DNA from: Candidatus Poribacteria bacterium
Lineage (GTDB): Bacteria > Poribacteria > WGA-4E > WGA-3G
Direction of reading: 5' to 3'
Length of the DNA stretch: 64,000 nucleotides
Assembly: GCA_028821605.1 (NCBI GenBank)
Contig: JAPPFM010000056.1
Location: 135,466-199,465, forward strand
Part shown: in pieces, positions 36,779 through 61,580 of the stretch
How the letters are laid out: every line of letters begins with the position of its first letter
How positions within the stretch are numbered: the first letter of the stretch is position 1
Translations under genes and position numbers: made by a program
The notes under the pieces: generated by a model
Seen by the model: the letters and a program-made list of their open reading frames with translations, nothing else
The model's database searches: none
What the model was told of the DNA's origin: nothing

Positions 36779-36843
36779 GGTTATCGGTCATCGGTTAAAG
36801 AGGTAGTTGATTTTACAAAACCACCTCTTAACTGACAACTAAT
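36779..36843. repeat. short member of MITE-like palindromic element family (arms GTTATCGGTCATCGGTTAAAGAGGT / ACCTCTTAACTGACAACTAAT)
   Basis: Inverted arms around an 18-nt centre, between the transglutaminase stop and the next ATG. Confidence 0.55.
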
Positions 36844-36860
36844 TGGATAAAGACAAAGAA

Positions 36861-39587
36861 ATGCAACGCGCAGATGTAAAAGATTGGACGGTAATCGGTG
36901 ATAGTTATAACACCATCGAATCGTCCCGTGGACGTACAGGCAATGTTCCCGGTAAGCAGATCGATGAGATGTTGGGTGCGGATAGACAAATAAATCCGCA
37001 CTGGCACGCCTTCATGCAGGCACTCGACACGTTAGGACTCGCGGAGATGGAATCTCGCGACAAAGAGGTGCAACGTCTGCTTCGAGAGAACGGTGTCACC
37101 TACGTCTTACACGGGGAACAGCAGGGACATCGCCCGTGGGAATTAGATCCCATTCCACTAATTATCTCAAAAATAGATTGGGAAACGATCTCTGACGGAC
37201 TTACACAACGAGCGGAGCTGCTAAACCTAATTTTGGCGGATCTCTATGGTGAGCGAACCTTAATCAAAGATGGGTTGATACCACCAGAAGTGATTTATGC
37301 GCATGCTGGATTTTTGCGAGCGTGTGTCGGGCTTGTTCCGTTTGGATTCCCTTTCCTCTTGAGTTATGCCGCCGATTTGGCGCGCGGACCGGACGGCGAA
37401 ATGTGGATACTCGGTGATCGGGCACAGGCACCATCAGGTGCAGGCTACGCGCTCGAAAATCGCACCGCCCTCGCGCGCGCACTACCGAACCTCTTTGGTG
37501 AAGTCGGCGTTCATCGACTCTCTTTTTTCTTCCGCGCACTACAAAACAGCGTCGTGGACCTACAACACCAACTTGAAACTGCTTCCCGTATTGCGCCGCA
37601 TCAAACAGACAACCCACAGGTCGTTGTACTGACCCCTGGTCCCCTCAACGAAACTTATTTTGAACACGCGTATCTCGCAAACTACCTCGGTTACACCTTA
37701 GTCCAAGGTGATGACTTGACGGTGTGGGATGGGCGCGTTTGGTTGAAGTCGCTTGATGGCTTGCGCCCTGTCGATATTATTTTGCGCCGAGTGGATGATG
37801 TTTTTTGTGATCCGTTGGAACTCCGACAGGATTCAAGACTTGGGGTCGCAGGTTTGCTGGAAGCGATTCGACAGGGAAACGTGGTTGTGATAAATCCGCC
37901 GGGCAGCGGTGTTTTAGAAAATCCGGGCTTGATGCCGTTCCTGCCGAACATCGCAAAACGGTTGTTGGGTGAAGACCTACGTCTCCCCTCTGTCGCAACA
38001 TGGTGGTGTGGGCAACCGAAGCAGCGCGACTATGTGTTGGCAAACCTTAAAAAGTTAGTCGTCAAACCTATTCACCGTCAACCGGGCGGACGACCCCTGT
38101 TTGGAAGTGAACTCGATAGTAGTCAACTTGATGCACTTCGCGCTCGGATTAATGCCAAACCGCATCTCTATGTCGGGCAGGAGCATGTTCACTTCTCCAC
38201 AACACCCTCGCTGATTGAAGGGAAACTTGAACCCCGCCGTGCGATTCTTCGTAGTTTTTTGTTCGCAGAGAGAGATGGCTACACCGTGATGCCAGGTGGG
38301 CTTACCCGTTGTGCAGGCGAGAAGGGTGAACTGACAATCTCAATCCAAGATGGTGGAGTTAGTAAAGACACCTGGGTACTTGCCTCTGAACCTGAACCGC
38401 ATGTCAGTTTATGGCAGCGACGTATCACCGAGGTGATGGGTCCTGCTTCTACGAGTCCGGCTGGATTGTCGAGTCGTGCAGCTGAGAATCTGTTCTGGGT
38501 AGGTCGCTATGCGGAACGGGCAGAGGGACAAGCGCGGCTCCTGCGGATTATGTTGAATAAGGTCAAGATGGGTAGGATGGGCTTGGAGACTTCCCACTTA
38601 GCACAAGGACTACCTTCCGCGCTCTTTACGGAGACCTTCGGTGACGATGAAAGGGAAGTATCGGAACTCGCGTATCTCCACAGCATGCTCCGCTCCCTGA
38701 CCGGTTTAACTTCATCGCACCCGGGTTTCGTCAGAAAAGACGAACAGTCGTTAGAAGATGAGCTTCTTTCCATCATGCTGGACGTGGAAAACACCGGCAG
38801 CTTGGTGTCTACGCTTCAGGCACTTCTCACCGCGGCTTACGCAGTCAGAGACCGCTGGTCTACCGACACATGGCGTGTGATGAACGGCATTGAAGATCTA
38901 TGTGCTGCCCTTGAAAAAAGCGTTCCCGGAGATGGAGATGCAAGTCCACAGATATTGACGGACCTCGTGCTGCAAGAAGCGGAATTAGCCTCACTGGATC
39001 AACTCATGATCTTTCTTTCAGCACTGAGTGGGCTTAATGCCGAAAACATGACGCAAACGATCGGTTGGATTAGTTTGGATATGGGACGGCGTATTGAACG
39101 CGCACTGCTTCTCATGGTGCTTTGCCGTTCGAGTCTTGTCGCCGTTCAGGACGACTGGGTTGAATATATGTTACTTGAATCTGTCCTTGCTGCCGCCGAG
39201 AGCCTGATCACTTACCGCAGCCGCTATCGTACAACACTCCACTTTCCAACTGTCTTAGAGTTGCTACTTCTTGACGAGAACAACCCGCGCTCGCTCTTAT
39301 ATCAGTTGAAACGGCTTGAGGAACAGATACGTATCCTCCCAAGGGAAAAACTCGGTTACCGGCTTAGCGAGGAGGAACAACTCATTCTGGAGGCTTTAAC
39401 GCAGTTGCAGCTTTCTAATACAATTGACCTCGCCGAGCGTTCGGAGCACACAACACAACGTAAGGGGTTAGAAAAACTCCTTGTCCGCCTTGCACAGATA
39501 CTGGTTGACATTTCCGATGTCCTCACGCAGACCTATTTTAGCCACGTCCAAAGACCGCAGCAGTTGATTACAACCGATAACCTTTAG
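36861..39587 (+). CDS. CP type-2 ATP-grasp fused to alpha-E domain (Rv2567-like)
   Basis: The N-terminal half parallels ORF 30732 (IDEMLGADRQINPHW...). The C-terminal half carries AENLFWVGRYAERAEGQARLLRIML (alpha-E). 36843 is an alternative start. Confidence 0.75.
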   Translation: MQRADVKDWTVIGDSYNTIESSRGRTGNVPGKQIDEMLGADRQINPHWHAFMQALDTLGLAEMESRDKEVQRLLRENGVTYVLHGEQQGHRPWELDPIPLIISKIDWETISDGLTQRAELLNLILADLYGERTLIKDGLIPPEVIYAHAGFLRACVGLVPFGFPFLLSYAADLARGPDGEMWILGDRAQAPSGAGYALENRTALARALPNLFGEVGVHRLSFFFRALQNSVVDLQHQLETASRIAPHQTDNPQVVVLTPGPLNETYFEHAYLANYLGYTLVQGDDLTVWDGRVWLKSLDGLRPVDIILRRVDDVFCDPLELRQDSRLGVAGLLEAIRQGNVVVINPPGSGVLENPGLMPFLPNIAKRLLGEDLRLPSVATWWCGQPKQRDYVLANLKKLVVKPIHRQPGGRPLFGSELDSSQLDALRARINAKPHLYVGQEHVHFSTTPSLIEGKLEPRRAILRSFLFAERDGYTVMPGGLTRCAGEKGELTISIQDGGVSKDTWVLASEPEPHVSLWQRRITEVMGPASTSPAGLSSRAAENLFWVGRYAERAEGQARLLRIMLNKVKMGRMGLETSHLAQGLPSALFTETFGDDEREVSELAYLHSMLRSLTGLTSSHPGFVRKDEQSLEDELLSIMLDVENTGSLVSTLQALLTAAYAVRDRWSTDTWRVMNGIEDLCAALEKSVPGDGDASPQILTDLVLQEAELASLDQLMIFLSALSGLNAENMTQTIGWISLDMGRRIERALLLMVLCRSSLVAVQDDWVEYMLLESVLAAAESLITYRSRYRTTLHFPTVLELLLLDENNPRSLLYQLKRLEEQIRILPREKLGYRLSEEEQLILEALTQLQLSNTIDLAERSEHTTQRKGLEKLLVRLAQILVDISDVLTQTYFSHVQRPQQLITTDNL

Positions 39588-39626
39588 TCCCGGGGAGCAC
39601 CTCACAGTCTCCATAGGATTACTGCG

Positions 39627-40508
39627 ATGAATTACAAGATCGTCCATAAAACTGAATACAGCTATACCCATCCCGTGAACCTCTGCTATAACGAGGCGCG
39701 TTTGAGTCCCCGGAGTTTTGCTCATCAGGATTGTAGCGAGAGTCAGTTCGTTGTGGACCCCGAACCTAAAGAGTGCCGAGAACGTCAGGATTTCTTTGGA
39801 AACACCGTTTACTATTTCACAATCCAGCAGCCTCATAATCAACTCACCGTTAGGGTTACGAGTCGTGTGAACGTCAAAGACAGAGAGATGCAACTGAATT
39901 TCGCCAAGCACCTCACTTGGGAGGAGGTGCGACAGCAGTTGCAAACGGATCAGAATTCGGGAATTCTGGAGATGCGGCAATATGTTCTTGACTCTCCAAT
40001 GGTTCCGATGATGCCCGAACTCCACGCTTATGCTGAAAAGTCGTTTACCAAAAGAAAACCGCTGCTCGAAGCTGTTAACGATTTGACCACTCGTCTCTAC
40101 ACCGATTTTACCTACGATCCGGGCTTCACGACAATCGCAACACCGTTGGCTGATGTCATAGAGCATCGTCGGGGTGTTTGTCAAGATTTTGCGCACCTCG
40201 GTATCGGGTGTCTACGTGCGTTGGGGCTTGCTGCGCGTTACGTCAGCGGCTATATTGAGACTGTCCCGCCACCGGATCAGGAGCCGTTAGCGGGTGCCGA
40301 TGCCTCCCATGCGTGGTTTTCTGTTTATCTCCCGCAGCTTGGCTGGGTAGATTTCGATCCGACAAATAACCAGATACCAGCAGATCAGCACATCACAATC
40401 GCATGGGGAAGAGACTATGCGGACGTAACGCCGCTGAAGGGTGTTGTCTTTGGGAGTGGCACACATGAATTATCTGTCTCGGTGGATTGTAAACGGGAAA
40501 ATTTTTAA
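39627..40508 (+). CDS. transglutaminase-family protein (Bact_transglu_N + core; Rv2569c-like)
   Basis: MNYKIVHKTEYSYTHPVNLCYNEARLSPRS, RGVCQDFAHLGIGCLRALGLAARYVSGY, HAW...DPTN. Confidence 0.8.
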   Translation: MNYKIVHKTEYSYTHPVNLCYNEARLSPRSFAHQDCSESQFVVDPEPKECRERQDFFGNTVYYFTIQQPHNQLTVRVTSRVNVKDREMQLNFAKHLTWEEVRQQLQTDQNSGILEMRQYVLDSPMVPMMPELHAYAEKSFTKRKPLLEAVNDLTTRLYTDFTYDPGFTTIATPLADVIEHRRGVCQDFAHLGIGCLRALGLAARYVSGYIETVPPPDQEPLAGADASHAWFSVYLPQLGWVDFDPTNNQIPADQHITIAWGRDYADVTPLKGVVFGSGTHELSVSVDCKRENF

Positions 40509-40521
40509 CCAGTCGCATGCT

Positions 40522-40640
40522 GGTTATCAGTTTTCAGTTCGGTTTTTCTGCGAAAAACCTTTCAGTTTTCAGAAAGAGACTTTGGAATTATCCAAAACCT
40601 CTTGTAACTGACGACTGACAGCTGATAACTGAAAACTATT
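40522..40640. repeat. MITE-like palindromic element copy (TIR GGTTATCAGTTTTCAGTTCGG ... CTGACGACTGACAGCTGATAACTGAAAACTATT)
   Basis: Inverted terminal arms. The right end is identical over about 30 nt to the copy at 44430-44459. Confidence 0.6.
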
Positions 40641-40682
40641 AAAGCGGATCTACGGAGAGGAACGCGAAAATCACCAAGACCC

Positions 40683-40711
40683 CTAACCGAACCGCAAGGA
40701 AAATTAAAATA
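40683..40711 (+). promoter_or_regulatory. copy 3 of conserved leader motif CTAACCGAACCGCAAGGAAAATTAAAATA
   Basis: Immediately 5' of the MazG-like gene. Confidence 0.45.
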
Positions 40712-40996
40712 ATGACAATTGAAGCGTTTCAGAAGCAAATTGAAGCTATCTATTACACGCGCGATGCTGAGCGCGGCGTACCACTAACCTTTACATGGTT
40801 CGTTGAAGAGGTCGGCGAATTGGCGAAGGAAATCCGCAAACAGCCGCAGGACATAGAACGGCTGCGAGAGGAATTCGCCGATGTTTTTGCATGGCTCGCC
40901 ACGTTAGCGAGCCTGCTCGGTATTTCCTTAGAAGATGCCGCGCAAATCTACGCAGCGGGCTGCCCGAAATGCAAAGATACGCCCTGCGACTGTTAA
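40712..40996 (+). CDS. MazG-like nucleotide pyrophosphohydrolase domain small protein with C-terminal CPKC...C.C motif
   Basis: EEVGELAKE ... EEFADVFAWL matches the MazG NTP-PPase helical core. 94 aa. Confidence 0.55.
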   Translation: MTIEAFQKQIEAIYYTRDAERGVPLTFTWFVEEVGELAKEIRKQPQDIERLREEFADVFAWLATLASLLGISLEDAAQIYAAGCPKCKDTPCDC

Positions 40997-41010
40997 CTCG
41001 CGTGGTGGAC

Positions 41011-42282
41011 TTAATTTCCATTCAAAAACCGATCGAAGTTACCGCCGAACAGGTTGTTGACATCCCGCTCAATCTCTGCCGAAGTCGGTGCCCACCCGAC
41101 ATCGAGAAGCGTTTGATATTTCTCTACCAAAACGTCCGCGATAATCTGACGCGAGTGTTTCCACTTATAGACAAGCTGATCCAAAATTCGTGCATCGGAA
41201 TGCTGTGGGATAACACTCAAACCGAGCAGTTCAATCCGTTCTCGTGTAATCTCCTCAATGACGCTCGGATTGTTCATAAACCACCAACATCCGAATATCA
41301 TCAAATTCTTGAATTTCCGCCCAATCACACACAATTCATGCTGGTTCTCGCGAGACAGCAGGGTAACGAGAAACTTATTGTCAGGATTTTCACGGAGTAG
41401 CGTTTCCAGACTCGTCAGATCCGCTTTCCCACTTCCGTCACCTGCCATCTGAAGTTGTGGGTTAACGGCGCGTTTCACGCCAATCATCAGCGCGAACGGA
41501 ACGTTAAATTCACGCGAAATCGGTAGTATGCAGTTGTCAAAGAGCCTTCCAAGGACACCATCCTCAGGGTATTGGAAATCCGGTGGGAGGGAGACCGCCA
41601 TATATTTCGGGTTCATTCGTTGAATCCATGTTTCCAAAAATCTGCGGACTTCCTTGTAAGTCTTCTCTGTTGATAGATCAGGATCAACATCATAGCCGAG
41701 ACCGAGAAGGTGATCATAACCGACTTCTTGGTAAGTGTTGATGAGGACATCCATCCGAAGTGCCGCTTCAAAGCGCGTGTCACCCGTGTCACCAGATTGC
41801 CAGACCGGTGCTTCTGCCGAATCAAAAGGATCGTTCGTCATCACCACTTTAGAGACTTTTGCGCGTTCAAAAACAGTGTCAATAAATGCCTCAACGGTGG
41901 TATCCGCAAAGTAGTCGCGGTAGTCCTGTAGATTGCGAGAACCGACATCTAACCCCAATTCATTTAAAGCCGTCACAACCCCTCGGCACGCCTCACTCAC
42001 CGGTGAGTTCTCAATAAAAAGCGTCTGCCAGATGAGATCTGCTTGTTCCGTCTTTGTCATCGCCCAGAACTGCTGATATGAGATATCCGATTTGCGGAAG
42101 ACTTCAGCGATAAGGTAGTGATAGGTAAGCAATTCATCTATACCCCATAACAACAAGTCACCGAAGGGCGGACTAAAGAGGTGTGTGTGAATATCTGTGA
42201 TGTTTTGCGTGTCAACAGCGTCAAAAACAGCGGTTTTCAACTGTTCTGTGGTAGCAAGTGTCTGTGTTTGATTCATGTTCAT
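41011..42282 (-). CDS. uxaC: glucuronate (uronate) isomerase family protein
   Basis: ITDIHTHLFSPPF aligns with UxaC PIFDYHCHLPP. The C-terminal FGCWWFMNN...DARILDQLVYKW...NLFGGNFDRF aligns with E. coli UxaC FGSGWWFND...DSRSFLSYTRHEYFRR...NICFNNARDYF. Confidence 0.6.
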   Translation of the reverse strand: MNMNQTQTLATTEQLKTAVFDAVDTQNITDIHTHLFSPPFGDLLLWGIDELLTYHYLIAEVFRKSDISYQQFWAMTKTEQADLIWQTLFIENSPVSEACRGVVTALNELGLDVGSRNLQDYRDYFADTTVEAFIDTVFERAKVSKVVMTNDPFDSAEAPVWQSGDTGDTRFEAALRMDVLINTYQEVGYDHLLGLGYDVDPDLSTEKTYKEVRRFLETWIQRMNPKYMAVSLPPDFQYPEDGVLGRLFDNCILPISREFNVPFALMIGVKRAVNPQLQMAGDGSGKADLTSLETLLRENPDNKFLVTLLSRENQHELCVIGRKFKNLMIFGCWWFMNNPSVIEEITRERIELLGLSVIPQHSDARILDQLVYKWKHSRQIIADVLVEKYQTLLDVGWAPTSAEIERDVNNLFGGNFDRFLNGN

Positions 42283-42385
42283 TTAACCCTCCAGATTCTG
42301 AAAAAAATAATTAAAAAAAACGGACGTTGACACCTTCCAACTCCCTTTGAACGAACTCGCCGCAGTCCTTCATTGAAACGTTGGA

Positions 42386-43387: not shown

Positions 43388-43402
43388 TCGGATCTCCTAT
43401 TT

Positions 43403-43834: not shown

Positions 43835-43876
43835 ATCGGAACTCTTTTTTATACGTGTTTGTGGACGCGAACGAGG

Positions 43877-44296: not shown

Positions 44297-44318
44297 CTGA
44301 TCATTTCCTCCTATGAAT

Positions 44319-44459
44319 GGTTATCAGTTACCAGTTATCGGTTGTCGGTTAAGAGGGTGTTTGGTAACAATTCCCCAACTTCGGGTACTCCAGAAGGAGG
44401 TAAATCGTTACAAATTCCCTCTTTAACTGATAACTGACGACTGACAACTGAAAACTATT
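44319..44459. repeat. MITE-like palindromic element copy (GGTTATCAGTTACCAGTTATCGGTTGTCGGTTAAGAGGG ... CCCTCTTTAACTGATAACTGACGACTGACAACTGAAAACTATT)
   Basis: Long inverted terminal repeats, inserted between tpiA and secG. The right arm overlaps the last 12 codons and the stop of tpiA. Confidence 0.65.
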
Positions 44460-45193: not shown

Positions 45194-45204
45194 AGTCCTT
45201 TCCA

Positions 45205-46323
<1,119 letters not shown>

Positions 46324-46473: not shown

Positions 46474-47322
46474 TTGAATAATTTCAGATACCCTATTGGC
46501 ATGTCCACAGACACCAATAAAAAATCGTATCAACCTACCGAGAGTTTCCGTGCTATCCCTGTCGCAGTGCCCGAGAATCTCGGTAACATTCGAGTTATCC
46601 TCTTTGAACCACGTGAACCCGGAAATATTGGCTCTGTCGCCAGAGTCGTGAAAGGTATGGGGCTATCACAGCTCTATCTGGTAAATCCTGTTCCGTTCCA
46701 AGATGTCGATGCAGCGTGGTATATGGCACACGGTGCGAAGGATATTCTCGAAAATTGCCACGTCGTTCCTGAACTGAAAGACGCACTTGACGGCATCCAA
46801 TATCTGGTGGGGACGACACACCGTCGCCGTGATGTACGTCTACCGCAGCCTGTACCTGCCCGCGAGGCGGCGCAAACGATCGCTACAATTTCGCAGGATA
46901 AATCGGTCGCACTGCTTTTTGGACGCGAAGACTTTGGCTTGTCTACCGATCAAATGAGTCTCTGCCAGTTGACCGCAAGCGTACCAATGGCGACGAAAAA
47001 CCCATCTCTGAACTTAGCACAGGCAGTCCAAATCTTTGCCTATGAGGTCTTCGTCGCGAGTCTGGATGAGTATCCACCCTCCGAAATCGACCACGCCGAA
47101 GTGAACGCCTTGGAAGAGTTCTACGAGCGTGTGACTCGCCTGTTGGATAAGGTAGGCGTGACTCCATATAACCAAGACTGGGAGACGTATTTAAAGTCAT
47201 TGCGGCGCGTCTTCTCTCGTACCCCGTTGGAGGCAAGAGACATCGCTACACTGGACATAATTTTCTCTACGACCTATCGGCACATTGAACGTCTTGAGAA
47301 AAAATTAGCAGAGGATAAATAG
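46474..47322 (+). CDS. SpoU/TrmH-class RNA 2'-O-methyltransferase (TrmJ-like)
   Basis: IRVILFEPREPGNIGSVARVVKGMGLSQLYLVNP matches TrmJ motif 1. The start may be the internal Met at about 46501. Confidence 0.65.
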   Translation: MNNFRYPIGMSTDTNKKSYQPTESFRAIPVAVPENLGNIRVILFEPREPGNIGSVARVVKGMGLSQLYLVNPVPFQDVDAAWYMAHGAKDILENCHVVPELKDALDGIQYLVGTTHRRRDVRLPQPVPAREAAQTIATISQDKSVALLFGREDFGLSTDQMSLCQLTASVPMATKNPSLNLAQAVQIFAYEVFVASLDEYPPSEIDHAEVNALEEFYERVTRLLDKVGVTPYNQDWETYLKSLRRVFSRTPLEARDIATLDIIFSTTYRHIERLEKKLAEDK

Positions 47323-47378
47323 TTTTCGTCGCATCTGTTGTCGAAATGGATACGCCCAAAATCTTACGGTAAGAAGTC

Positions 47379-49333: not shown

Positions 49334-52300
49334 ATGCGATATATCAAACCCATCGTTTGGCTCATCTTTATCCTCTCTGGTGCCAGTGGACTCATTTATG
49401 AAGTCATCTGGATGCGGCAGCTCACGCTCATCTTCGGCAGCACCGTCTTCGCAACGAGTACCGTCCTGACCGCATTTATGGCAGGACTCGCACTCGGCAG
49501 CTACTACTTCGGTAGGAAGATCGACGAAAGCACACAGTCACCACTACGGATTTACGCGCTTTTGGAAGCGGGTATCGGTGCGTTCTGCCTTGTCTGGCCC
49601 CTCATTTTAGGGGCATTAAGTGCCATTTATGTTTTGGTTCATCGCAATATCACATCAGAGTTCTACACCCTCTCGCTCATCCGGTTCGTGCTAACGTTCG
49701 GGGTTCTGTTAATTCCCTCCACACTGATGGGTGGCACTCTACCGGTGCTAACCCGCTTTTTTGTGAAAAGGTTGGAGCAGCTCGGCACCAATATTGGGAT
49801 TCTGTATGCGTTGAACACATTCGGTGCCGTTATCGGAACTGTGGCAGCAGGATTTTTCCTAATTGAAGCGTTAGGTGTTCGATGGACGCTCGGTGTCGGT
49901 ATCGCTATTAATTTCGGCGTAGCAGCGGTTGCATTAGCGTTATCACAGAAGGTATCGGAAACAGAAGAGGTCAGCAGTCAGCAAAGCGATTTTCTTGCTG
50001 ATAGCCGACAGCCGACGGTTTCCGATAGCCATCCCTCCGACAACCGACAACCGACAACCGACAACTCTAAATTGGTATTATGGGCAATAGGCATCTCCGG
50101 GTTCTGTGCGTTGGCTTATGAAGTGTTGTGGACACGCATCATGGTCTTCTTCCTTGGGAGTACAACCTATGCGTTCGCGACGATGCTTGCTGCGTTCCTA
50201 TTCGGTATCGCGCTGGGGAGTATGGTATTTGCACGTTGGGTTGACCGGGTTAAACAACCTGTAGTAGTTTTCGGTATTATTCAACTCGGTATCGGACTTT
50301 TCGCGCTTCTCCTGATGCCCGCGTTTGAGGAGTTGTACGGCATGAGCCGTGCGTTCCAGTCCACCTTTGGCGGAAGTAGGTTCTGGGCATTTTTCTCCTG
50401 TTTCCTTGTGATGTGCCTTCCAACGTTTCTGATGGGCACGAGTTTTCCACTTGTGACGAAAATCTATACCGGCAGCGCACGTCAACTCGGTAGGAGCATT
50501 GGGAACGTCTATGCAGTCAACACAGTCGGGAGCATTTTAGGGGCGTTTTTTGCAGGATTCATCCTGATCCCACTTCTGGGCATCCGACCGAGCATCGTGC
50601 TAATGGTGGCTTTGAACACAGGCATCGGGTGCCTGCTTGTTTTAAGAGGTGAATGGCGGGCTGAAACCGGGAAATCGCTCCTACAAGGGGTAAGCATCGG
50701 GATGCCGATCCTCAACGCTGGATTGGCTGTTATCATGTTGCTCACCGTGAATCAACCGCTCTTTCTGAAAAGTGCCATTTTCAAAACGCAACGCCCCGGC
50801 GATACACTCGTTGATTACAACGAGGAGGTGGACGCGACCGTAACAACGTTAAAAGATGATGAAGGGGTCTATCGTCTCTATGTAGACACAAATCAGGCAG
50901 CGGATGCCTCGCGCTGGGATTCACCGTCGCATCGCGTCATCGCACATCTACCGTTGCTACTGCATCCACGTCCAAAACGTGCCCTCGTCGTCGGGTTCGG
51001 TATGGGGCTTACTTCGTATTCCATAACACAGCACGGTGTGCAAGTTGACGCAGTGGAACTGTCGAGCGGCGTGATTTCCGCTGCACAGAAGTATTTCACG
51101 CACGTCAACGGGAATGTGTTTGAAAACCCTCAATTTAACTATAGACTCAACGATGGGCGAAACCATATCCTGATGACGAAGACGAAATACGATATGATCT
51201 CGACGGGGATCATTCATCCGCTCGTCAGTGCGGGGAGTTCCAACATTTACACCGCCGATTTCTACCGTTTGTGTCGTCGGATTTTGAGCGAAGATGGGAT
51301 CATGTGCCAGTGGGTGCCATTGCATCGCTTACCAGAGGCGCACTATAAGATGATTGTGCGCACCTTCATTGAGGTGTTCCCGCACACAACGCTCTGGTAT
51401 AAGTACACACCGGATTTTGTGATTCTTATCGGCACACGTGAACCGCTGCGGATTGACTACAAAAACTTCATCGAACGCTCACAGATAGCGAGTATTCGAG
51501 AAGGGCTTGCTGCCGATGATCTGGATGGGATGTCGCTGCTCGATTCATTCATGATGGGACCTGAGAATGTACGTAAGTACGCAGACATTGGACCTATCCA
51601 CACAGACAACCGACCTCGATTGGAATTTTTCCGTGGGGCAGATTTGGTGGGTACAACAACACAGAACGTTAAAGGGATGGCAGAATACCGGGAACGGGTG
51701 CTGCCTTACCTCACCAACTACGGCACGACACTCGCAGAGAAACGGGACGCACGAGAGAAACTTGACACCTATTTTAGAGCCACACAGAGATTGATTCGTG
51801 GACAAATTGCTTATGCAAGCGCGCAGTATCAAAATGCCGCGGCACTCATGAACGAAGCGGTGGAACTCAATCCCGTTGACGAGACGATTCGCTATAACTT
51901 TGGGGTCGTCGCAGGTTTAATTCGCGAAGGTGAACAGGAAGAACTCCAACAGATTGAACGGCAGGTACAGCAGACGATGGCACAAAACCCTGATGACCTT
52001 CAGGGACACCTCCATTTGGCAACGTTGTATGAGATGCAAGGTGAACTCGGAAAGGCAGCAACGGAGTTAGAGGAATTACTCAGACGCGATCCGAAGAGAT
52101 TTGAGGTCTATCTGCTCTTAGGTCCGCTGTATGAACGTCAGGAACGCTACAAAGACGCGCTTCGCACCTATGAACGGCTTGAACGACTGGAGACAACTTT
52201 GCAATTGCCAGCACCCATTTTTGCAGCAATGGCGGGCCTCCATCTGCAATTGGAAAACATAACTGAAGCCGAAAAATATGGAAAGAAGGGCATCGCCGCG

Positions 52301-54729: not shown

Positions 54730-54738
54730 GGTAGAAAG

Positions 54739-54860
54739 AGTTATCGGTTTGCCTCGCAGTGAGAGTTATCAGTTTTCAGTCCGAGACGCTTTGTGGCAGT
54801 AACACAATTTGTACCTGCCACAAGAAGTTAACTGACAACCGATAACTGATGACTGATAAC
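54739..54860. repeat. MITE-like palindromic element copy with internal TTGTGGCAG...CTGCCACAA hairpin
   Basis: Arms GAGTTATCGGTTTGCC...GAGAGTTATCAGTTTTCAGTC and GTTAACTGACAACCGATAACTGATGACTGATAAC, between aspS and the Uma2 gene. Confidence 0.6.
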
Positions 54861-54883
54861 CAAAAAATAAAGGAGATAGCACG

Positions 54884-55591
54884 ATGAAAAGAAAAATAGG
54901 CACTGCCCCGACATTCGTCTATCCCGAATCAGACGGAGAACCGATGGCAGAAACTCCGAAACATCAGCAGGTGATGATAGATTGCATGGATATCCTACGA
55001 AACCATTTCCATGGGATCCGAGATGTGTATATCGGTGGGAACATGCTACTGTATTATGAAGAGGGGAATCCTCGGAAGAGCGTCTCCCCGGATGTCTTCA
55101 TGGTTCGTGGGCTGTCGAAAAAAGAACTCCGAACATATAAAACCTGGGAACAACCCGCCACCCTTGATTTTGTGTTAGAAGTTGCCAGCCCGAGTACGTA
55201 TACGAGAGACTTCAACGAGAAGATGGAGATATATGCCAAGATTCTGCGTGTCAAAGAGTATTATATCTATGACCCCTATCATGAAATTGAGCCCTATTTC
55301 GTTGGGTTCCGGCTTGTGGGTGAAACTTATGAGGAGATAGCATTCGTGAACGCACGACTCCCGTCTTCAGTGTTAGGTTTGGAGTTGGGTGAGCATGAGG
55401 GTTTGCTGCGTTTATATGACCCTGTTAAGTCTGCGTGGTTACTTACTTCTCAAGAACGCGTAGGAGAGGCGGAAACCCGCGTAGCACAAGAATCCCTGGC
55501 ACGACAGGAGGCGGAAACCCGTGTGCAACACGCCGAAGCCGAACTTGAAAAACTGCGTGCAGCACTCCAACGTTTAGAAACAACCAAATAG
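54884..55591 (+). CDS. Uma2 family (DUF820) protein with C-terminal coiled-coil tail
   Basis: TFVYPESDGEPMAETPKHQQ..., PDVFMV, coiled-coil EAETRVAQESLARQEAETRVQHAEAELEKLRAALQRL. This is the third Uma2 paralog in the window. Confidence 0.75.
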   Translation: MKRKIGTAPTFVYPESDGEPMAETPKHQQVMIDCMDILRNHFHGIRDVYIGGNMLLYYEEGNPRKSVSPDVFMVRGLSKKELRTYKTWEQPATLDFVLEVASPSTYTRDFNEKMEIYAKILRVKEYYIYDPYHEIEPYFVGFRLVGETYEEIAFVNARLPSSVLGLELGEHEGLLRLYDPVKSAWLLTSQERVGEAETRVAQESLARQEAETRVQHAEAELEKLRAALQRLETTK

Positions 55592-55595
55592 GAAA

Positions 55596-58500
55596 TTGAT
55601 GGTGAAAATCGGCAAATACCTCCCTATAGTGATCCTAATATGCGTCGGATTAGCGTTTGCAACAGCAGATGCCCAAGAAAACCTTGCACAACAGGTGTCC
55701 GCTATTTTTCAGCAAAACTGCTTGAATTGTCATGGACCCTCCGGTTCCTTTAAGGAAGCACTCCTGCTTGACCGCACCGCGCTTATTGATACGCAGGTCA
55801 TCATCCCAGGAAACCCAGAAAACTCAGAATTCTATAAACGACTCCTTGGACCGACTGAGAAGGGTCCGCAAATGCCGCTCAATCTACCACCGCTCTCACC
55901 AGAAGCCATTGAAACGATTGCCCGTTGGATTACCGCAGGCGCGCCAGATTGGGATGTGCAGCACGACATCAATTTCATAACCACAGATACAATACTCAAT
56001 ACCATCCGAAACCATCTAAAGTCGCTGGATCCGTTTGATCGTCCCTCCGCACGCTATTTTACAATGACGCATCTCTATAATGCCGGTGAAAGCCCTGAAA
56101 CTCTCAGCGACTATCGGATCGCGCTCTCTAAACTGATAAATAGCCTCTCGTGGAAGTTTGAGATCACGAATCCAACACCTATTGATGAAGCACAAACAAT
56201 CTTCCATATTGACCTACGGCGTTACGAATGGAATAATATCAGAACCGATGTGTGGACACAAATTGAGCAAGTATATCCGTACAACATTGTGTTTGATCCA
56301 GAAACACAAGCCGGTCTCCTTGAAAAACTGACACACCTGCAGACTGAAATGGGCAGCACAGTGCCGTTTGTCCATGTCGATTGGTTTCTTACGACCGCGT
56401 CGTTGCCACCACTCTATCACGACATTTTAGGTCTTCCACAAACAGACCGTGTGTTAGAGGCACAACTGGAGGTAAATGTTGCGAGCAATATCAGGAACGC
56501 CCCGGGGATAAATGTCTGGCGTGCGGGTTTCAACGATTCGGGTGTCTCCTCAAACAACCGCGTTGTGGAACGCCATACGTCTCGGTATGGTGCGTATTGG
56601 AAAAGTTACGACTTTGCTGGGAGCGTAGGTTCACAGAATATCTTTACGCACCCACTTGATTTCACACACGATGGTGGCGAAATTATCTTCAATCTCCCCA
56701 ACGGATTGCAGGCGTACTTGCTGGTTGACGTTAATGGTAACCGGCTGAACGACGCACCAATTGACATCGTTAGGAACCTTGCTGCGAGCAATCCGACAGT
56801 CCGGAACGGTCTCTCGTGTATTGGGTGCCATACGCAAGGCATGAAGAAGTTTGAAGATAGTGTGCGAGTGGCGATTGAACAAGATGACAACCCGCCGTAT
56901 AACAAAGAACAGGCACTACGCCTCTACGCTAAACAGTCAGTGCTTGATAATCTGGTTGCAAAAGATACACTAAGGTTTCAGCAGGCATTGGAAAAGATTG
57001 GCGGTCCGTTTGCGGATGATGCATCCAGACAACGCTTCTTCAAGCAACATGAAAATGAACCCATCCAACGGTTTCATGAATCGTTTCAATCACCCCTAAA
57101 TGCCTCGGACGCTGCTGCCGCTGTTGGATTGGAAACAGAAGCATTCCTCACACAGATCCGTGAGAAACAGAGTTTAAAAAACTTAGGACTACAAACGCTC
57201 ATAGATGTGAAGGGCACCGTGAAACGGGATGCATGGACATCTAACTTTGACGATGTAATTTCTGCGTTGAATACCCCTGATAGCATCCTTCCGCCAGTCG
57301 TGCAGCGTCCAGAACGCATTCCGGGTGCTGGTGTATACATTCCCGACCCGAACCTCCGCGCGGCAATTGCCGAAGCACTCGGCAAAGCACCTGGTGATCC
57401 GATTACGGTAGAAGATATGGCGATGTTGGCTGATCTGGACGCAAGGAATTATGATGAGCCGCGCAAGGAAAATATTAACAATTTAACGGGACTTGAGTTC
57501 GCAGTGAATCTCAAATTTCTACATATTGGTGGTAATTCAGTATCAGATTTATCGCCCCTTGCGGGGCTAATAAAACTAGATTTCTTAGATGTCCAGGATA
57601 ACTTAATATCAGATATATTGCCGCTTAAAGGATTGACTCGTCTAAAAGATTTAGTTCTTACTGATAACGTGATATCTGATTTTTCTCCCCTTATGGAGTT
57701 AACAACATTAAAAGAGGTATGGATTTCTGACAGCCCGGCATTTGACCTGTCACTACTTGGAAGATTGATTAACCTTGAGGGTGTGCATGCTTGGGATGTC
57801 CCCATAAAAGATCTATCCCCTCTTGCAGGATTGACAAAATTGAGATGGTTAGACTTTGGTCGTATTCCAATATCAGATCTTGCACCGTTAGCGAACCTAA
57901 CAAACCTGAGAAAACTGATATTTTACGATTGCGGCATAGAAGATATCTCGTCTCTGGCAGGATTGAAAGAGTTGAGATCTCTTATAATTCCTCACAACGC
58001 GATCTCAGATCTCTCGCCGTTGGCGGGGTTAACTCGTTTAGAAACTTTACATATCGTCAATAACCAAATATCAGATGTATCGCCCTTGGCAGGGTTAACC
58101 AACTTAGGCGAACTAAACCTCCGCAACAACTCAATAACAGATTTCTCACCTTTAGAGGCACTTTCCCAAAATACAAATATACTTACTGGTGAAGTGGCTA
58201 TACCCGATCTAAACCTCCGCGATGCAATTGCAGAGGCACTCGGTAAAGGTGATACTACAGTTGTTTCAATTACCGCTGAGGAAATGGCTACATTGACAAG
58301 TCTTGTTGTCAATGACAGAGGTATTCAAGATTTGATAGGACTTGAGTTTGCTATAAATTTGGAAAACCTATGGTTTGAACACAATCAGGTATCTGACCTA
58401 TCTTCTATCGCTAAATTAACCAAACTGCGCGAGTTACGGTTTGTAAGCAATCAGGTATCTGACCTATCCTCTATTGCTAAATTAACCAAACTGCGCGAGT

Positions 58501-61487
58501 TAAGGATTGATCACAATCCTATATCCGACTTATCGCCTATTGCAGGTTTCACGCAATTAGAAGTACTATCAATAAACGAGTTCCCACTATCTGACATATC
58601 ACCACTTTCAGGATTAATTAACTTGAAAACCTTTCACTCTTGGGGCAGCCCGATCGTTGACATGTCACCGCTCGTCAACTTATCGAAACTGGAAACACTT
58701 GATCTCTGCGGTGCCAAATTAGCAAATATACCATCTTTAGATAACTTAAAAAGTTTGAAAACACTGTATCTTGTTGATTGCAATATTTCGGATGTATCGT
58801 CCTTGTCAAGTTTAAGAGGTTTAGAACATTTTACAAAACTGAATCTCCATAGAAACAACATTATCTCAGACATATCGCCTTTAGCAGTGCTAACTAACCT
58901 GAAATGGCTAAATCTTTCATGGAATAATATCTCGGATGTATCTGCTTTAACAGACCTAACCAATCTGAAATGGCTAAGCCTTGAATTAAACAATGTTTCT
59001 GACGTATCTCCTTTAGCAAAGTTAACTAACTTGGAATGGCTAAATCTTACCAAGAATCCAATACCAGATTTCTCCGCTTTAGCGGTTCTTTCACAAAGTG
59101 CAAATATTCTTACTGGCGAGGTTGTTATCCACGATCCGAACCTCCGCGATGCAATTGCAGAGACACTCGGTAAAGGTGATACTACAGTTGTTTCAATTAC
59201 CGCTGAGGAAATGGCTACATTGACAAGTCTTGTTGCCAATAACAGAGGCATTGAAGATTTGACGGGGCTTGAGTTTGCAACAAATATAAACAGTCTGGAC
59301 CTCAATGGCAATCAGATTAGTGACATTTCACCCTTATCAGAATTGGTTAACTTGTCTCATTTAGAGCTTCGCCGTAACCAGATTAGCGATATCTCAGCCC
59401 TCACAGGATTAACCAACATAGTTTCTTTAAATATACGAGTCAATCCACTATCTGACATCTCATCCCTCGCGAATCTAATGAAAATGGACTTTTTAGAGGT
59501 TACTGATACCAACGTTTCTGACCTGTCACCGCTAGCAGAATTGGATAATCTGCGCGAATTTAAATCTTGGCACAGTCCTATATCTGACCTCTCTCCATTG
59601 GCACATCTAACCGTTATAGATGTATGTGGTGCCCCCATATCGGATCTCTCGGCACTGACAAACTCAACAAATTTGAGAGAGTTGTATCTTGTCAGAAACA
59701 ATATCTCAGATGTTTCATCCTTAGCGGGGTTAACAGGTTTAATACGTCTGAGTCTCGAGGGGAACAAAATATCGGATATATCGCCGCTTGTGGGTTTAAC
59801 GAACTTGAAATCACTAGCACTTCAGCACAACTCAATATCCGATTTTTCGCCTTTGGAACGATTAACTAAGACAACAGCTATATCTCGAGCCTTCAATCCT
59901 GGTTCACCCACAGGGGGTGCGAAGATAGAGGGACCTTGGCTATGGGTGACGGTCCCGGGAGATCACCTTGACAGCAGCACGGATTTACTCGCAGAAGCTA
60001 GTGGAGGTGACGTAACAGAACAGAACATTGCCATCAATGGTGTATCAGAAGGAATGTCTGTGGGACGCAATGTCTGGACAACTGGCAAGATTGCGCCTGA
60101 AGGACGCGCTAACATCACCGAAATGCTCAATTCTATCGGCATGGGAAACTATAGAGATAGTGGCAACCGTATCGTCTATGGTTCTGTAACCTTGGATTCA
60201 CCGCGTGAACAGAAGACAACAATGTTCGTGGGAAGCGATGACGGAATAAAGGTCTGGCTCAACGGTGAATTGGTTCACCAAGCACTTTTTTGGCATAGAG
60301 CTGAAGATTACCAGTATTTTTTCCCTGTCACCTTGAAACGTGGAAAAAATGTCTTGTTGGTCGCAGTTGACGGCAGGGGTTGGAACTCGAACAACGGTTT
60401 TTTTGGATTTGAAGTGGGTACAGAATACACTCTGCCAAACCCGCGTGTCAGATATATCTTCTCTGAGCCTTCAATCCATTCAGGTGATACCTTCACCCTC
60501 CAAATTGAAGCAGAAGATGTTTACGATTTAGCGGGATGGCAATTTAATATTGCGTTCGATTCTACCCCACTCGAAGCCGTTGAAGTCAACGAAGGCGATT
60601 TCCTCAAGACAGATGGTGGAACGACCTTCTTTCAGCAGGGTACAATTGATAACACTATAGGCAAAATTACCAAACTCAGTTCAGCAAGACTCAGCGAAGA
60701 CGGGGTCAGCGGTAAAGGTACGCTTCTGTCGGTGACATTTACAGCAAAAACAGCTGGACAAACGCAGTTGAAACTCGAAAATTTTCAACTCGCTGCTATC
60801 ACCGGTGTATCTATCCCTGCGGGTCCACATGAGGTTGTTATCACTGTAGAAGGGCAACTCGCTACTGGAGATGTGAATCGAGATGGACAGGTAAATATCC
60901 TGGATATGGTGCTTGTCGCTCGACACTTCGGGAAAACCGTGTCTGCCAACTCGGAAATTGACATGAATGGTGATGGTGTTGTCAATATCCAGGACCTTAT
61001 CATCGTGGCGCAACATCTCGGTGAATCAACCACCGCTGCATCACCTTCCGTCACTGCAGCAATAGACAACGGCGAACTAACGCCTGCGATGATACAAGCC
61101 TGGATCACGCAAGCGCAAATTGAAAACGACGGTTCCATCGCCTTCCAACAGGGCATCGCCAATCTTGAACGACTTTTGGCACTATTTATCCCAGAAGAAA
61201 CCGCCTTACTTCACAACTATCCAAACCCGTTCAACCCAGAGACGTGGATACCCTATCAACTGTCCGAACCGGCTGAGGTTACCTTGCGTATCTATGCTGT
61301 GAATGGCAGTTTGATCCGAACATTAGCATTAGGACAAATGCCCGCCGGCATCTACCAAACCCGCACCCGTGCCGCATATTGGGACGGCAAAAATAAGGTA
61401 GGCGAATCGGTCGCGAGTGGTGTCTATTTTTACACACTAACTGCAGGCGACTTTAACGCCACGAAAAAAATGTTGATAAGGAAATAG
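55596..61487 (+). CDS. giant (1963-aa) secreted multidomain protein: planctomycete-type cytochrome-c (PSCyt1-like, CxxCH) module, three leucine-rich-repeat blocks, beta-sandwich domain, cohesin-like domain, dockerin, Por_Secre_tail-like C-terminus
   Basis: Signal peptide. CLNCHGPSG...IIPGNPENSEFYKRLLGP...QMP (PSCyt1 pattern) and a second CIGCHT. About 37 22-aa LRRs (L.L..N.ISD.SPLA.LT.L). TFTLQIEAEDVYDLAGWQFNIAFDS...EGDFL (cohesin-like). DVNRDGQVNILDMVLVARHFG / DMNGDGVVNIQDLIIVAQHLG (dockerin). C-terminus NYPNPFNPETWIPYQL...SGVYFYTLTAGDFNATKKMLIRK. Confidence 0.8.
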   Translation: MMVKIGKYLPIVILICVGLAFATADAQENLAQQVSAIFQQNCLNCHGPSGSFKEALLLDRTALIDTQVIIPGNPENSEFYKRLLGPTEKGPQMPLNLPPLSPEAIETIARWITAGAPDWDVQHDINFITTDTILNTIRNHLKSLDPFDRPSARYFTMTHLYNAGESPETLSDYRIALSKLINSLSWKFEITNPTPIDEAQTIFHIDLRRYEWNNIRTDVWTQIEQVYPYNIVFDPETQAGLLEKLTHLQTEMGSTVPFVHVDWFLTTASLPPLYHDILGLPQTDRVLEAQLEVNVASNIRNAPGINVWRAGFNDSGVSSNNRVVERHTSRYGAYWKSYDFAGSVGSQNIFTHPLDFTHDGGEIIFNLPNGLQAYLLVDVNGNRLNDAPIDIVRNLAASNPTVRNGLSCIGCHTQGMKKFEDSVRVAIEQDDNPPYNKEQALRLYAKQSVLDNLVAKDTLRFQQALEKIGGPFADDASRQRFFKQHENEPIQRFHESFQSPLNASDAAAAVGLETEAFLTQIREKQSLKNLGLQTLIDVKGTVKRDAWTSNFDDVISALNTPDSILPPVVQRPERIPGAGVYIPDPNLRAAIAEALGKAPGDPITVEDMAMLADLDARNYDEPRKENINNLTGLEFAVNLKFLHIGGNSVSDLSPLAGLIKLDFLDVQDNLISDILPLKGLTRLKDLVLTDNVISDFSPLMELTTLKEVWISDSPAFDLSLLGRLINLEGVHAWDVPIKDLSPLAGLTKLRWLDFGRIPISDLAPLANLTNLRKLIFYDCGIEDISSLAGLKELRSLIIPHNAISDLSPLAGLTRLETLHIVNNQISDVSPLAGLTNLGELNLRNNSITDFSPLEALSQNTNILTGEVAIPDLNLRDAIAEALGKGDTTVVSITAEEMATLTSLVVNDRGIQDLIGLEFAINLENLWFEHNQVSDLSSIAKLTKLRELRFVSNQVSDLSSIAKLTKLRELRIDHNPISDLSPIAGFTQLEVLSINEFPLSDISPLSGLINLKTFHSWGSPIVDMSPLVNLSKLETLDLCGAKLANIPSLDNLKSLKTLYLVDCNISDVSSLSSLRGLEHFTKLNLHRNNIISDISPLAVLTNLKWLNLSWNNISDVSALTDLTNLKWLSLELNNVSDVSPLAKLTNLEWLNLTKNPIPDFSALAVLSQSANILTGEVVIHDPNLRDAIAETLGKGDTTVVSITAEEMATLTSLVANNRGIEDLTGLEFATNINSLDLNGNQISDISPLSELVNLSHLELRRNQISDISALTGLTNIVSLNIRVNPLSDISSLANLMKMDFLEVTDTNVSDLSPLAELDNLREFKSWHSPISDLSPLAHLTVIDVCGAPISDLSALTNSTNLRELYLVRNNISDVSSLAGLTGLIRLSLEGNKISDISPLVGLTNLKSLALQHNSISDFSPLERLTKTTAISRAFNPGSPTGGAKIEGPWLWVTVPGDHLDSSTDLLAEASGGDVTEQNIAINGVSEGMSVGRNVWTTGKIAPEGRANITEMLNSIGMGNYRDSGNRIVYGSVTLDSPREQKTTMFVGSDDGIKVWLNGELVHQALFWHRAEDYQYFFPVTLKRGKNVLLVAVDGRGWNSNNGFFGFEVGTEYTLPNPRVRYIFSEPSIHSGDTFTLQIEAEDVYDLAGWQFNIAFDSTPLEAVEVNEGDFLKTDGGTTFFQQGTIDNTIGKITKLSSARLSEDGVSGKGTLLSVTFTAKTAGQTQLKLENFQLAAITGVSIPAGPHEVVITVEGQLATGDVNRDGQVNILDMVLVARHFGKTVSANSEIDMNGDGVVNIQDLIIVAQHLGESTTAASPSVTAAIDNGELTPAMIQAWITQAQIENDGSIAFQQGIANLERLLALFIPEETALLHNYPNPFNPETWIPYQLSEPAEVTLRIYAVNGSLIRTLALGQMPAGIYQTRTRAAYWDGKNKVGESVASGVYFYTLTAGDFNATKKMLIRK

Positions 61488-61488
61488 T

Positions 61489-61580
61489 TCTCGGTTATCA
61501 GTTGTCAGTTAAGCCTTGTGGCAGTTGTACGTTACATGACTTCCACAACCCTCACTTTAACCTAAAACTGATAACTGAAA
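61489..61580. repeat. MITE-like palindromic element copy (CGGTTATCAGTTGTCAGTTAAG ... CTGATAACTGAAAG) with TTGTGGCAG...CCACAA core
   Basis: Lies between the stop of the giant gene and the transporter gene. Its arms match the family consensus. Confidence 0.6.

Follow-up and report, generated by a model that had tools for sequence, protein, structure and literature searches.

Five palindromic elements in a Poribacteria contig

The window analyzed here, a 64,000-nt stretch of a Candidatus Poribacteria contig, carries five palindromic intergenic elements bounded by tandem heptamers. Their neighbors are genes for transglutaminase, ATP-grasp, and Uma2-family proteins, mazG, tpiA/secG, aspS, a leucine-rich repeat (LRR)/cohesin/dockerin gene, and a dicarboxylate symporter gene. 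The closest matches of the window genes are Poribacteria genes, and proteins of Candidatus Poribacteria metagenome-assembled genomes (MAGs) match its triose-phosphate isomerase (TIM, the tpiA product) and MazG at 87-97% identity. An initial annotation had described five copies of a MITE-like element (MITE, miniature inverted-repeat transposable element), and all five are present, with limits that we refined to 36780-36846, 40523-40640, 44316-44459, 54740-54860, and 61483-61582. Each folds as one long hairpin on either strand (-19 to -65 kcal/mol; z scores of -2.4 to -9), and five of five sit at gene ends, as the annotation had stated; all lie between co-directional genes, with one overlapping the final codons of tpiA. 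The elements measure 65-145 bp in the window and 48-250 bp in other loci, and the window arms comprise 2-4 units each.

The arm pattern GTTNTCRGTTNTCR, with at most one mismatch, occurred 24 times in the 64 kb, compared with 1.7 ± 1.4 times (maximum, 6) in dinucleotide-preserving shuffles, which places it ~14-fold above chance. The window has 7 arrays of at least three units, whereas 277 kb of unrelated metagenome loci have none; this background was made up of the matches listed for the transglutaminase-like protein (≤61% identity) in a scan of metagenome contigs; none of these listed matches contained an orthologous site. The shuffle counts and the background without such arrays rule out a chance origin.

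Although inverted terminal arms exist, as had been claimed, they do not form one fixed terminal inverted repeat (TIR). Instead, each arm is a tandem series of degenerate heptamers whose number varies from 2 to 5; they read (GTTNTCR)n in the left arm and, inverted, (YGANAAC)n in the right arm. Inside the arms, a GTTAAG...CTTAAC junction encloses one or more exchangeable, recurring hairpin modules, which we designate A to E. Module A (~80 nt) reads GTTAAGAG..TTTGTAACAAT..CTTGG-N6-CCAAG..ATTGTTACAAA..CTCTTAAC, module B (~54 nt) is a hairpin of the form TTGTGGCAG-loop-CTGCCACAA, module C is a 28-nt mini-hairpin (GTTCGGTTTTTCTGCGAAAAACCTTTCA), module D (~18 nt) reads GTTTGCCTCGCAGTGAGA, and module E (~38 nt) reads GTTAAAGAGG-N18-CCTCTTAAC.

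None of the five elements is assigned a strand. Element 1 (36780-36846) begins 2 nt past the TAG stop of a transglutaminase gene (ending at 36777) with the left arm GTTATCG GTCATCG (36780-36793), followed by a 39-nt E-type hairpin, GTTAAAGAGG...CCTCTTAAC (36794-36832), and a decayed right arm, TGACAAC TAATTGG (36833-36846), which ends 14 nt ahead of an ATG at 36861. Element 2 (40523-40640), between a transglutaminase-like gene (stop ending at 40508) and mazG (start at 40712), has a left arm of 2 units (40523-40536), the module C mini-hairpin (40537-40564), one more unit, an E-like core (40572-40608), a right arm of 4 units (40609-40636), and a terminal TATT. Element 3 (44316-44459) opens with AATG and ends with TATT; its arms have 4 units each (left, 44320-44347; right, 44428-44455) and surround the 80-nt module A as the core (44348-44427). 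The genes flanking element 3 lie on the minus strand: the tpiA open reading frame (ORF) runs through the arm (44459 to 44426) and is closed by the TAA of GTTAAAG (44425-44423), and the AGGAGG ribosome-binding site of secG begins 7 nt past the element.

Element 4 (54740-54860), between aspS (stop ending at 54729) and a Uma2-family gene (start at 54884), has an outer GTTATCG unit, module D (54747-54764), a left arm of 2 units (54765-54778), a module B core (54779-54832), and a right arm of 4 units (54833-54860). Element 5 (61483-61582) opens with an AATA end that, with the base after it, supplies the TAG stop codon of the LRR/cohesin/dockerin gene; its left arm (61487-61507) and right arm (61562-61582) have 3 units each and enclose a module B-like core (61508-61561). 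The element precedes a sodium:dicarboxylate symporter gene, which starts at 61627. The internal hairpin said to be common to elements 4 and 5 was confirmed, the second copy reading TTGTGGCAG...TTCCACAA. In contrast, the right ends of elements 2 and 3, described as identical over ~30 nt, match at 27 of 32 positions in register, with only AACTGAAAACTATT exact.

By inspection only, a probable degenerate E-type core (TTAAAGAGAAGGGG...CTCCTCTTAAAC) with decayed arms lies right after a stop codon at 33293-33356, and a possible plus-strand remnant, AATAGTTTTCG...GTTGTCG, lies at 47318-47345, where the TAG of AATAG is the stop codon of a SpoU methylase gene. All five intact elements fall in the last 28 kb of the window; positions 1-36000 hold one degenerate trace only and have many co-directional spacers (36-750 nt), and by our arithmetic the probability of such a split under uniform placement is ~0.016.

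Distribution and modular anatomy

The arm motif GTTNTCRGTTRTCRGTTAAG was scanned in one genome per species (185,579 species), and the counts given here are among the 120 matches listed. Many further copies lie outside the window, which clearly defeats the refuting condition that the initial annotation had set for itself: 85 of the 120 matches came from Poribacteria MAGs of many species, closed chromosomes included, and 4 further bacterial stretches carry the same modules as the Poribacteria loci. The other listed matches belong to Cyanobacteria (Nostocaceae, Microcystis, Scytonema, Nodularia, Planktothrix, and others), Parabeggiatoa, Bacteroidota, and a few more groups, and almost all of the non-Poribacteria matches are plain direct (GTTATCA)n arrays without an inverted partner. 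The comparison set, whose loci carry L numbers below, included 85 Poribacteria loci, 31 loci of other phyla, and 80 background metagenome loci. The same elements recur in many independent assemblies, closed long-read chromosomes among them, which rules out an assembly artifact. A scan of viral contigs gave 3 matches, so phages are not evident carriers. Typical Poribacteria heptamer elements, with arms, an E core, and module C, were seen on the IMG/VR contigs L217 (~200-420) and L218 (~200-480), which suggests that these contigs are Poribacteria prophage or misclassified host fragments.

Across the 85 Poribacteria loci, 66 arm pairs were convergent, i.e., (GTTNTCR)n ... (YGANAAC)n, versus 4 divergent, and the polarity of the arms is therefore fixed. 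The ends mirror each other, with AATR on the left (A45 A47 T52 R66 of 69 elements) and YATT on the right, and no conservation was found further out in these 69 elements. Among 441 units, GTTGTCA (94) and GTTATCA (83) were the most frequent, followed by GTTATCG (57), GTTGTCG (41), and GTTTTCA (41). A sister heptamer family, GTTNCCA/TGGNAAC (GTTACCA, GTTGCCA, and GTTCCCA), builds the same type of palindrome at L014 2090-2160 and at L092 5940-5965 and 7480-7600, and units of it occur in the window at 44327-44333.

Modules A to E combine in varying ways among loci, unit number differs between orthologues (L064, L076, and L094), and palindromes without a core exist (L100 1898-1926 and L112 7585-7635). 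A covariance model of module A, built from the fold of the window copy, found 24 distinct copies, the window's included, across the window and 89 fetched loci, each scoring 3-46 bits higher on one strand. Modules C (21 copies) and D (16 copies) are confined to Poribacteria loci and were absent from the 31 loci of other phyla and the 80 background loci. Module A, the module on which recent activity could be tested, is 56-78% identical within one genome and on average 58% (maximum, 80%) between genomes. The family of module A copies is thus old, with no recent burst, and the initial annotation's description of an active or recently active family is not supported for these copies, which at 56-80% identity are no closer within a genome than between genomes.

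Placement at gene ends and turnover between relatives

Of the 61 copies whose flanking genes could be classified, 45 have co-directional, 7 convergent, and 1 divergent neighbors. The upstream stop codon is mostly 0-10 nt from the first unit (median, ~4 nt) and is sometimes the TAG of the AATAG end, while the inferred downstream start lies a median of 20 nt past the right end, with the ribosome-binding site intact. The downstream genes include those for ribosomal proteins S11 (rpsK) and L15 (rplO), lumazine synthase, PurE, and HisH. Most of the spacers lie within operons, and the elements must therefore be transcribed through.

The leading arm is open in three of three frames, a stop then being supplied by the TAA of the GTTAAG junction or by the trailing arm, which carries TGA and TAA across all frames. 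Since the leading arm is open and a stop follows soon after, insertion at a gene end would cost only a short tail. The window TIM illustrates this arrangement: it ends ...SFAKIVFSCQSSVIS (...IVFSCQSSVIS), with the heptamer arm read in frame and the TAA of GTTAAAG as the stop (44423-44459, minus strand), whereas the ancestral Poribacteria C terminus is ...SFAQIV(K/R)N(A/V)(Q/I/L), e.g., ...IVKNAQ. Further Poribacteria TIM ends (...KMAVSSQ, ...KRVISS, and ...FSNW) also look heptamer coded.

Two further window arrays are translated as well. A solo two-unit array (39568-39581, minus strand; TTACAAC CGATAAC on the plus strand) lies in the last codons of the ATP-grasp gene, and the final residues of this 908-amino-acid protein, ...ITTDNL*, are encoded by it (39565-39587, plus strand). 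The second, a perfect (CGACAAC)x4 array (50038-50065, minus strand) with older degenerate units just upstream (~50000-50037), is read through as ...SRQPTVSDSHPSDNRQPTTDN... (...DNRQPTTDN...), an interdomain linker of an MFS/spermidine-synthase/TPR protein; here, repeat DNA has been co-opted as coding sequence.

The clearest comparison between relatives is the tpiA-secG site. L122, L123, and L124 have no element there, only an 18-nt spacer, and keep the ancestral ...IVRNVQ*; L122 and L123 differ from the window by 7% of nucleotides over gap and tpiA. L127 has the same left arm with a core cut to 40 nt (module E-like), and in L128 and L129 only AATAGTTTTCAG|TAACTGGTAACTGGTAACTGATAACCATT is left, the center being deleted. 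The old ...TTCA(A)TAGG has been preserved on the right side of the element, as has the AGGAGG ribosome-binding site. A separate length change was noted nearby in another pair of loci (L215 7800-7833 and L216 7835-7949; 96% identical), where a ~115-nt insertion between gap and tpiA lengthens the called TIM from 251 to 270 amino acids; the scan for heptamer arrays there was negative.

At the aspS-Uma2 site, the window, L011, and L002 share flanks and heptamer arms around three different cores: 27 nt in L011, the same 27 nt with a nested ~165-nt insert in L002, and modules D and B in the window. The nested insert is MITE-like, with its own inverted ends (AGGACTTACGCAA...). It belongs to a third repeat family of ~135-165 nt with inverted ends AGGACTTACGCAA...TTGCGTAAGTCCT (L002 ~6110-6290, minus strand, and L014 ~2160-2300), which is nested inside or adjoins heptamer elements and in L002 has TAAA on both sides. 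In L011, the spacer orthologous to that of element 5 lacks the element, and this locus has one behind the symporter gene, a position without any in the window. That window spacer is filled by two adjacent hairpins of a second, unrelated palindromic family, GGAAGnATGGAAGG ... CCTTCCATCCnTTCC, which was found at 63245-63336 in the window, at L052 6318-6397, and at L011 ~5790-5840 (5 window matches versus 1.3 expected).

L210, which is 93% identical overall, lacks element 1 in the orthologous spacer. Element 2 is common to the window and L210, with degenerate traces in L212 and L211, and the solo array at 39568-39581 is present in L210 and not in L212. Between the two copies of element 2, the right arm differs by 3 substitutions in 28 nt, and the module C stem (window 40539-40559; L210 4382-4402) shows a compensatory double change, GG..CC to GA..TC, reading CGGTTTTTC...GAAAAACC against CGATTTTTC...GAAAAATC.

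L014 and L092 (92-97% identical) differ at 4 element sites in 8 kb. At one, L092 reads ...CATAAATGGTT|AACTACTCC... (AATGGTT|AAC), whereas in L014 a full element separates GTT from AAC; the junction is flush, and nothing is duplicated. At another, one species has a B core within GTTGTCA-type arms and the other an E core within GTTACCA-type arms. Further locus pairs behave alike. The element family is thus polymorphic between relatives and changes by central deletion, unit slippage, and core turnover. It is found throughout the phylum, is modular and noncoding, lies flush in tight spacers at gene ends, and can replace terminal codons.

No target-site duplication was found: the flanks are inverted (AATR/YATT), and the junctions at tpiA-secG and in L014/L092 are flush. 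Two-nucleotide direct flank matches occurred in 15 of 69 elements, compared with ~12 that we estimated by hand from the palindromic TA consensus. The cognate transposase that the initial annotation had proposed looking for did not emerge, as no autonomous partner was found in ~0.9 Mb of related DNA, and the ORFs between distant inverted arrays there were ordinary genes with no transposase among them, although no search was aimed at RAYT (REP-associated tyrosine)-type Y1 transposases. IS605-type TnpB (OrfB_IS605/Cas12f-like) genes were observed at L211 2503-3339, L213 1-559, and L214 1-698 and 2503-3339, where they interrupt a transglutaminase and ATP-grasp cluster that is intact in the window; in these strains, mazG adjoins a TIR-domain gene and a BrnT toxin gene.

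We also considered the Uma2 endonuclease as a partner and rejected it, because few homologues lie near other elements and there is no clear association. The Uma2-family gene (PD-(D/E)XK, a putative endonuclease) lies directly 3' of element 4 in the window (54884-55591) and in L011. Its relatives include an L002 homologue beyond the LRR gene, a window paralogue at 11138-11992 (~11.3 kb), a gene at L033 6826-7218 within a ~870-nt indel relative to L005, and a homologue in a Scytonema locus (L042 4202-4786) ~120 nt from a (GTTATCA)n array.

The window also has long in-frame tandem repeats in surface-protein genes (966-1967, 3083-3328, and 58375-59048), with the first ORF showing periods of 261 and 162 nt, nested 21-, 33-, and 87-nt periods overlapping the ORFs at 2828-3400, and 66-nt LRR units in the 1,963-amino-acid LRR/cohesin/dockerin protein.

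Kinship and origin of the elements

By sequence, the closest known repeats are TAACTGA heptamers, since GTTATCA is the reverse complement of TGATAAC, which can be read as TAACTGA when repeated in tandem. In marine Beggiatoaceae, as well as in 15 Cyanobacteria and 5 Bacteroidetes, TAACTGA direct repeats are plentiful upstream of start codons (MacGregor 2015, Front Microbiol 6:1397, PMC4679880); the BOGUAY genome has 1 inverted repeat among 170 TAACTGA sets, and the repeats were proposed to be sites for a translational regulator in Beggiatoaceae (MacGregor 2015, PMC4679880). Poribacteria are not mentioned in that study, but the phyla it covers turned up next to Poribacteria among the listed arm-motif matches. 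The Poribacteria elements share with TAACTGA repeats the heptamer, the short tandem arrays (2-5 units here and 2-6 there), the mostly intergenic location, the occurrence near start codons in forward orientation and in ribosomal-protein operons, and the occasional translation (into LITDN-like or VISYQLS-like peptides). They differ in that TAACTGA repeats are homogeneous, solitary (GTTATCA)n arrays, whereas the Poribacteria arrays are paired inversely around hairpin modules and have AATR/YATT ends. The TAACTGA unit is also exact, with related heptamers rarely repeated, whereas GTTATCA makes up only 83 of the 441 Poribacteria units, with GTTGTCA, GTTATCG, GTTGTCG, and GTTTTCA as common. Finally, TAACTGA repeats lie ~1 nt from the start codon, compared with a median of 20 nt in Poribacteria, although the forward orientation of the start-proximal arm is kept.

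In mode of working, the closest systems are mosaics of repetitive extragenic palindromes (REPs) and MITEs. REPs, bacterial interspersed mosaic elements (BIMEs), and REPINs are multicopy extragenic palindromes that lie at gene 3' ends in operons, are mosaic, have no target-site duplication, and are co-transcribed as hairpins; a REP is a 20-40-nt imperfect palindrome with a conserved GTAG or CGTC tag and a cognate RAYT (Y1/HUH) transposase. Like the REP/BIME elements of Proteobacteria (on which see, e.g., PMC2817692 and PMC3116915), the Poribacteria elements are extragenic and multicopy, sit at gene 3' ends in operons, form modular mosaics, lack target-site duplications, and would be co-transcribed as hairpins. 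Unlike them, they have tandem-heptamer stems and AATR...YATT ends, with no GTAG/CGTC tag and no sequence similarity, and they occur in a different phylum. Bacterial MITEs such as Correia, RUP, and Nezha (reviewed in PMC3184786 and PMC10969869) are likewise small, noncoding, and dispersed, with inverted ends, long hairpins, insertion polymorphism, and ORF fusion or extension. The Poribacteria elements show the inverted arms of MITEs (14-35 nt; 5 copies in the window and 66 paired copies in 85 Poribacteria loci) but have no target-site duplication, no parent insertion sequence (IS) found in ~0.9 Mb, and variable-copy arrays rather than a fixed TIR.

Units of the cyanobacterial STRR (short tandemly repeated repetitive) sequences, attributed to Mazel in 1990, are said to be CCCCAGT, TTGGTCA, and CAACAGT; the observed GTTNTCR units equal none of these in any register, and membership was rejected. 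The hairpin modules of the small dispersed repeats (SDRs) of Nostoc were reportedly found by Elhai and colleagues in 2008 to insert into tandem heptameric repeats, and we know of no encoded enzyme for them. By description only, the Poribacteria modules are similar in being very small, hairpin forming, and nested inside other repeats, as SDRs are in Nostoc (as cited in PMC5861425). A full-text literature search retrieved nothing linking Poribacteria with heptamers, and the top-ranked literature on MITEs and palindromic repeats did not mention the phylum. The literature that could be searched describes no inverted heptamer arrays that bear conserved caps and enclose nested hairpin modules specific to Poribacteria.

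We consider it probable that the five window copies belong to a Poribacteria-wide, modular, noncoding palindrome family, a selfish or neutral BIME/MITE-like mosaic that is gained, lost, and rebuilt at gene ends. The elements would be DNA copied between loci by a trans-acting activity; either a hairpin-dependent activity of the REP/RAYT kind or recombination between heptamer arrays could have spread them, and slippage and palindrome instability would then reshape the copies. Co-transcription with their operons would place 20-60-bp hairpins between the cistrons of the mRNA. Such hairpins would be tolerated, not designed, between a stop codon and the next ribosome-binding site, and whatever influence they had on the processing, stability, or translation of mRNA would be incidental rather than the reason for their existence.

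Several observations weigh against this account. The presence of an element at tpiA-secG is discordant with the gap and tpiA tree, in which the window is sister to the empty L122, so that recombination or (repeated) loss must be invoked; this is also the only comparison that yields a clearly ancestral empty site. Some other "empty" sites hold AATGGTTAAC-like mini-palindromes, which may be growth seeds rather than deletion footprints. The module A copies are old, leaving current activity unsupported, and no mobilizing enzyme turned up in the ~0.9 Mb. Ascertaining the loci by their arm motif exaggerates how regular the architecture appears. Finally, some selection would be compatible with the compensatory change in module C, the sole sign of it, and with the retention of elements across species at some sites.

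The main rival, which we regard as unlikely, holds that the elements are functional cis-acting RNAs, i.e., intercistronic hairpins selected for mRNA stability, RNase processing, or translational coupling. In one form of this proposal, the start-proximal (UGAUAAC)n arm would act as TAACTGA repeats are proposed to act in Beggiatoaceae, and the left arm would sequester it until a ribosome terminating on the upstream gene melts the stem. This explanation fits the kinship with TAACTGA repeats and the tight placement between stop codon and ribosome-binding site in essential operons, those for ribosomal proteins among them. The YGANAAC arm always faces the downstream start in the mRNA, as in MacGregor 2015 (PMC4679880), some sites retain the element across species, and the GG..CC to GA..TC change maintains pairing. 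However, proximity to stop and start follows trivially from insertion into operon spacers of 18-50 nt, and close relatives without the element at the same site look none the worse.

Every selection test also failed to support an RNA device. Sense RNA was not favored in folding (sense more stable in 27 cases and antisense in 18; Wilcoxon P = 0.63), and the orientation of module A relative to genes is not fixed (antisense, 9-10; sense, 4-7). The arms of a module A copy are no more complementary to each other than to the arms of different copies (permutation P = 0.59), implying that pairing stems from a conserved palindromic consensus and not from compensatory change. At variable positions, facing heptamers agree less often than shuffled pairs (136 versus 165 ± 9), the disagreements being mostly transitions. 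Of the module A cells, 63% were paired, versus 35-57% in slid controls, but RNAalifold found no consensus structure in a MAFFT alignment of module A, and the covariance model, although it finds more copies, has weak pair counts. The whole window gave no match in a scan at Rfam gathering thresholds, and copies decay and collapse. We therefore rejected an Rfam-type structured RNA, given the lack of an Rfam match, strand bias, fixed orientation, or arm co-evolution. A role in RNA stability, which the initial annotation had raised, is possible, but strand folding, orientation, and arm co-evolution gave no signal of selection at the RNA level.

A bolder proposal, which we judge quite unlikely, is that a dedicated heptamer-recognizing system, shared horizontally by Poribacteria, Cyanobacteria, Beggiatoaceae, and Bacteroidota, lays down or extends GTTNTCR arrays and inserts modules flush at GTT|AAC without duplication. 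If true, this would be a new kind of small-element mobility and would also explain the TAACTGA repeats of other phyla.

Growth in place, in which arrays expand by replication slippage from GTT|AAC seeds and hairpin-templated repair makes them symmetrical, with no transposition, is improbable in our view. It would account for the variation in unit number between orthologues, for the coreless palindromes of L100 and L112, for the "empty" sites that hold AATGGTTAAC (L092) or ATGGTATTAAC (L073) where a relative has a full element, and for the site whose array is entirely GTTGTCA type in one species and entirely GTTACCA type in the other. Mini-palindromes, however, are equally expected from symmetric central deletion of a palindrome, and at tpiA-secG the ancestral spacer contains no palindrome that could have been a seed, and coding sequence was lost when the element inserted. 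Moreover, complex cores such as the 80-nt module A occur in more than 20 unrelated loci of many species and must have been copied from elsewhere.

We find it distinctly improbable that the elements are classical MITEs, deletion derivatives of a DDE-type IS (e.g., IS630 or IS5) mobilized in trans by a transposase acting on terminal inverted repeats. The MITE-like description of the initial annotation is apt insofar as the elements are small, dispersed, noncoding, palindromic with inverted termini, and non-autonomous and differ in presence between relatives, and a TA duplication could be concealed in their ends, which are often ...TA|GTT and AAC|TA.... The classical label fails, because the flanking 4 nt are inverted rather than direct, TG/CA variants (28 and 22 of 69) misfit a TA duplication, the junctions are flush, the number of tandem units per arm ranges from 2 to 5, the ~0.9 Mb yielded no transposase between distant inverted arrays, and the IS605 TnpB genes of related loci carry no arrays.

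That the elements are Rho-independent terminators, as the initial annotation had suggested from their position, is extremely improbable: stable hairpins do directly follow stop codons, and a terminator scan flags the module C hairpin followed by TTTCAGTTTT, but the outer stems have no T-run, terminator-like sites are not above shuffles, module C lies in both orientations relative to transcription, and most copies (45 of 61) are between co-directional genes, including rpsK, rplO, and biosynthetic operons.

Poribacteria are uncultured sponge symbionts whose genome dynamics are known from assemblies only. If the elements are, as we favor, a mosaic family that is gained, lost, and rebuilt at gene ends, then a repeat family that rebuilds spacers, swaps modules, and rewrites C termini would be a source of strain-level variation in these bacteria and a likely cause of assembly breaks and of wrong stop and start calls, while its conserved ends and modules would be usable as markers for typing Poribacteria strains. 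It would tie Poribacteria to the unexplained distribution of TAACTGA repeats across phyla and would be the first setting in which TAACTGA-type heptamers form the arms of discrete, polymorphic elements, whose filled and empty alleles would make the origin of the repeats testable. Hairpins of 20-60 bp in essential operons would likewise amount to a natural experiment on how far bacteria tolerate such structures.

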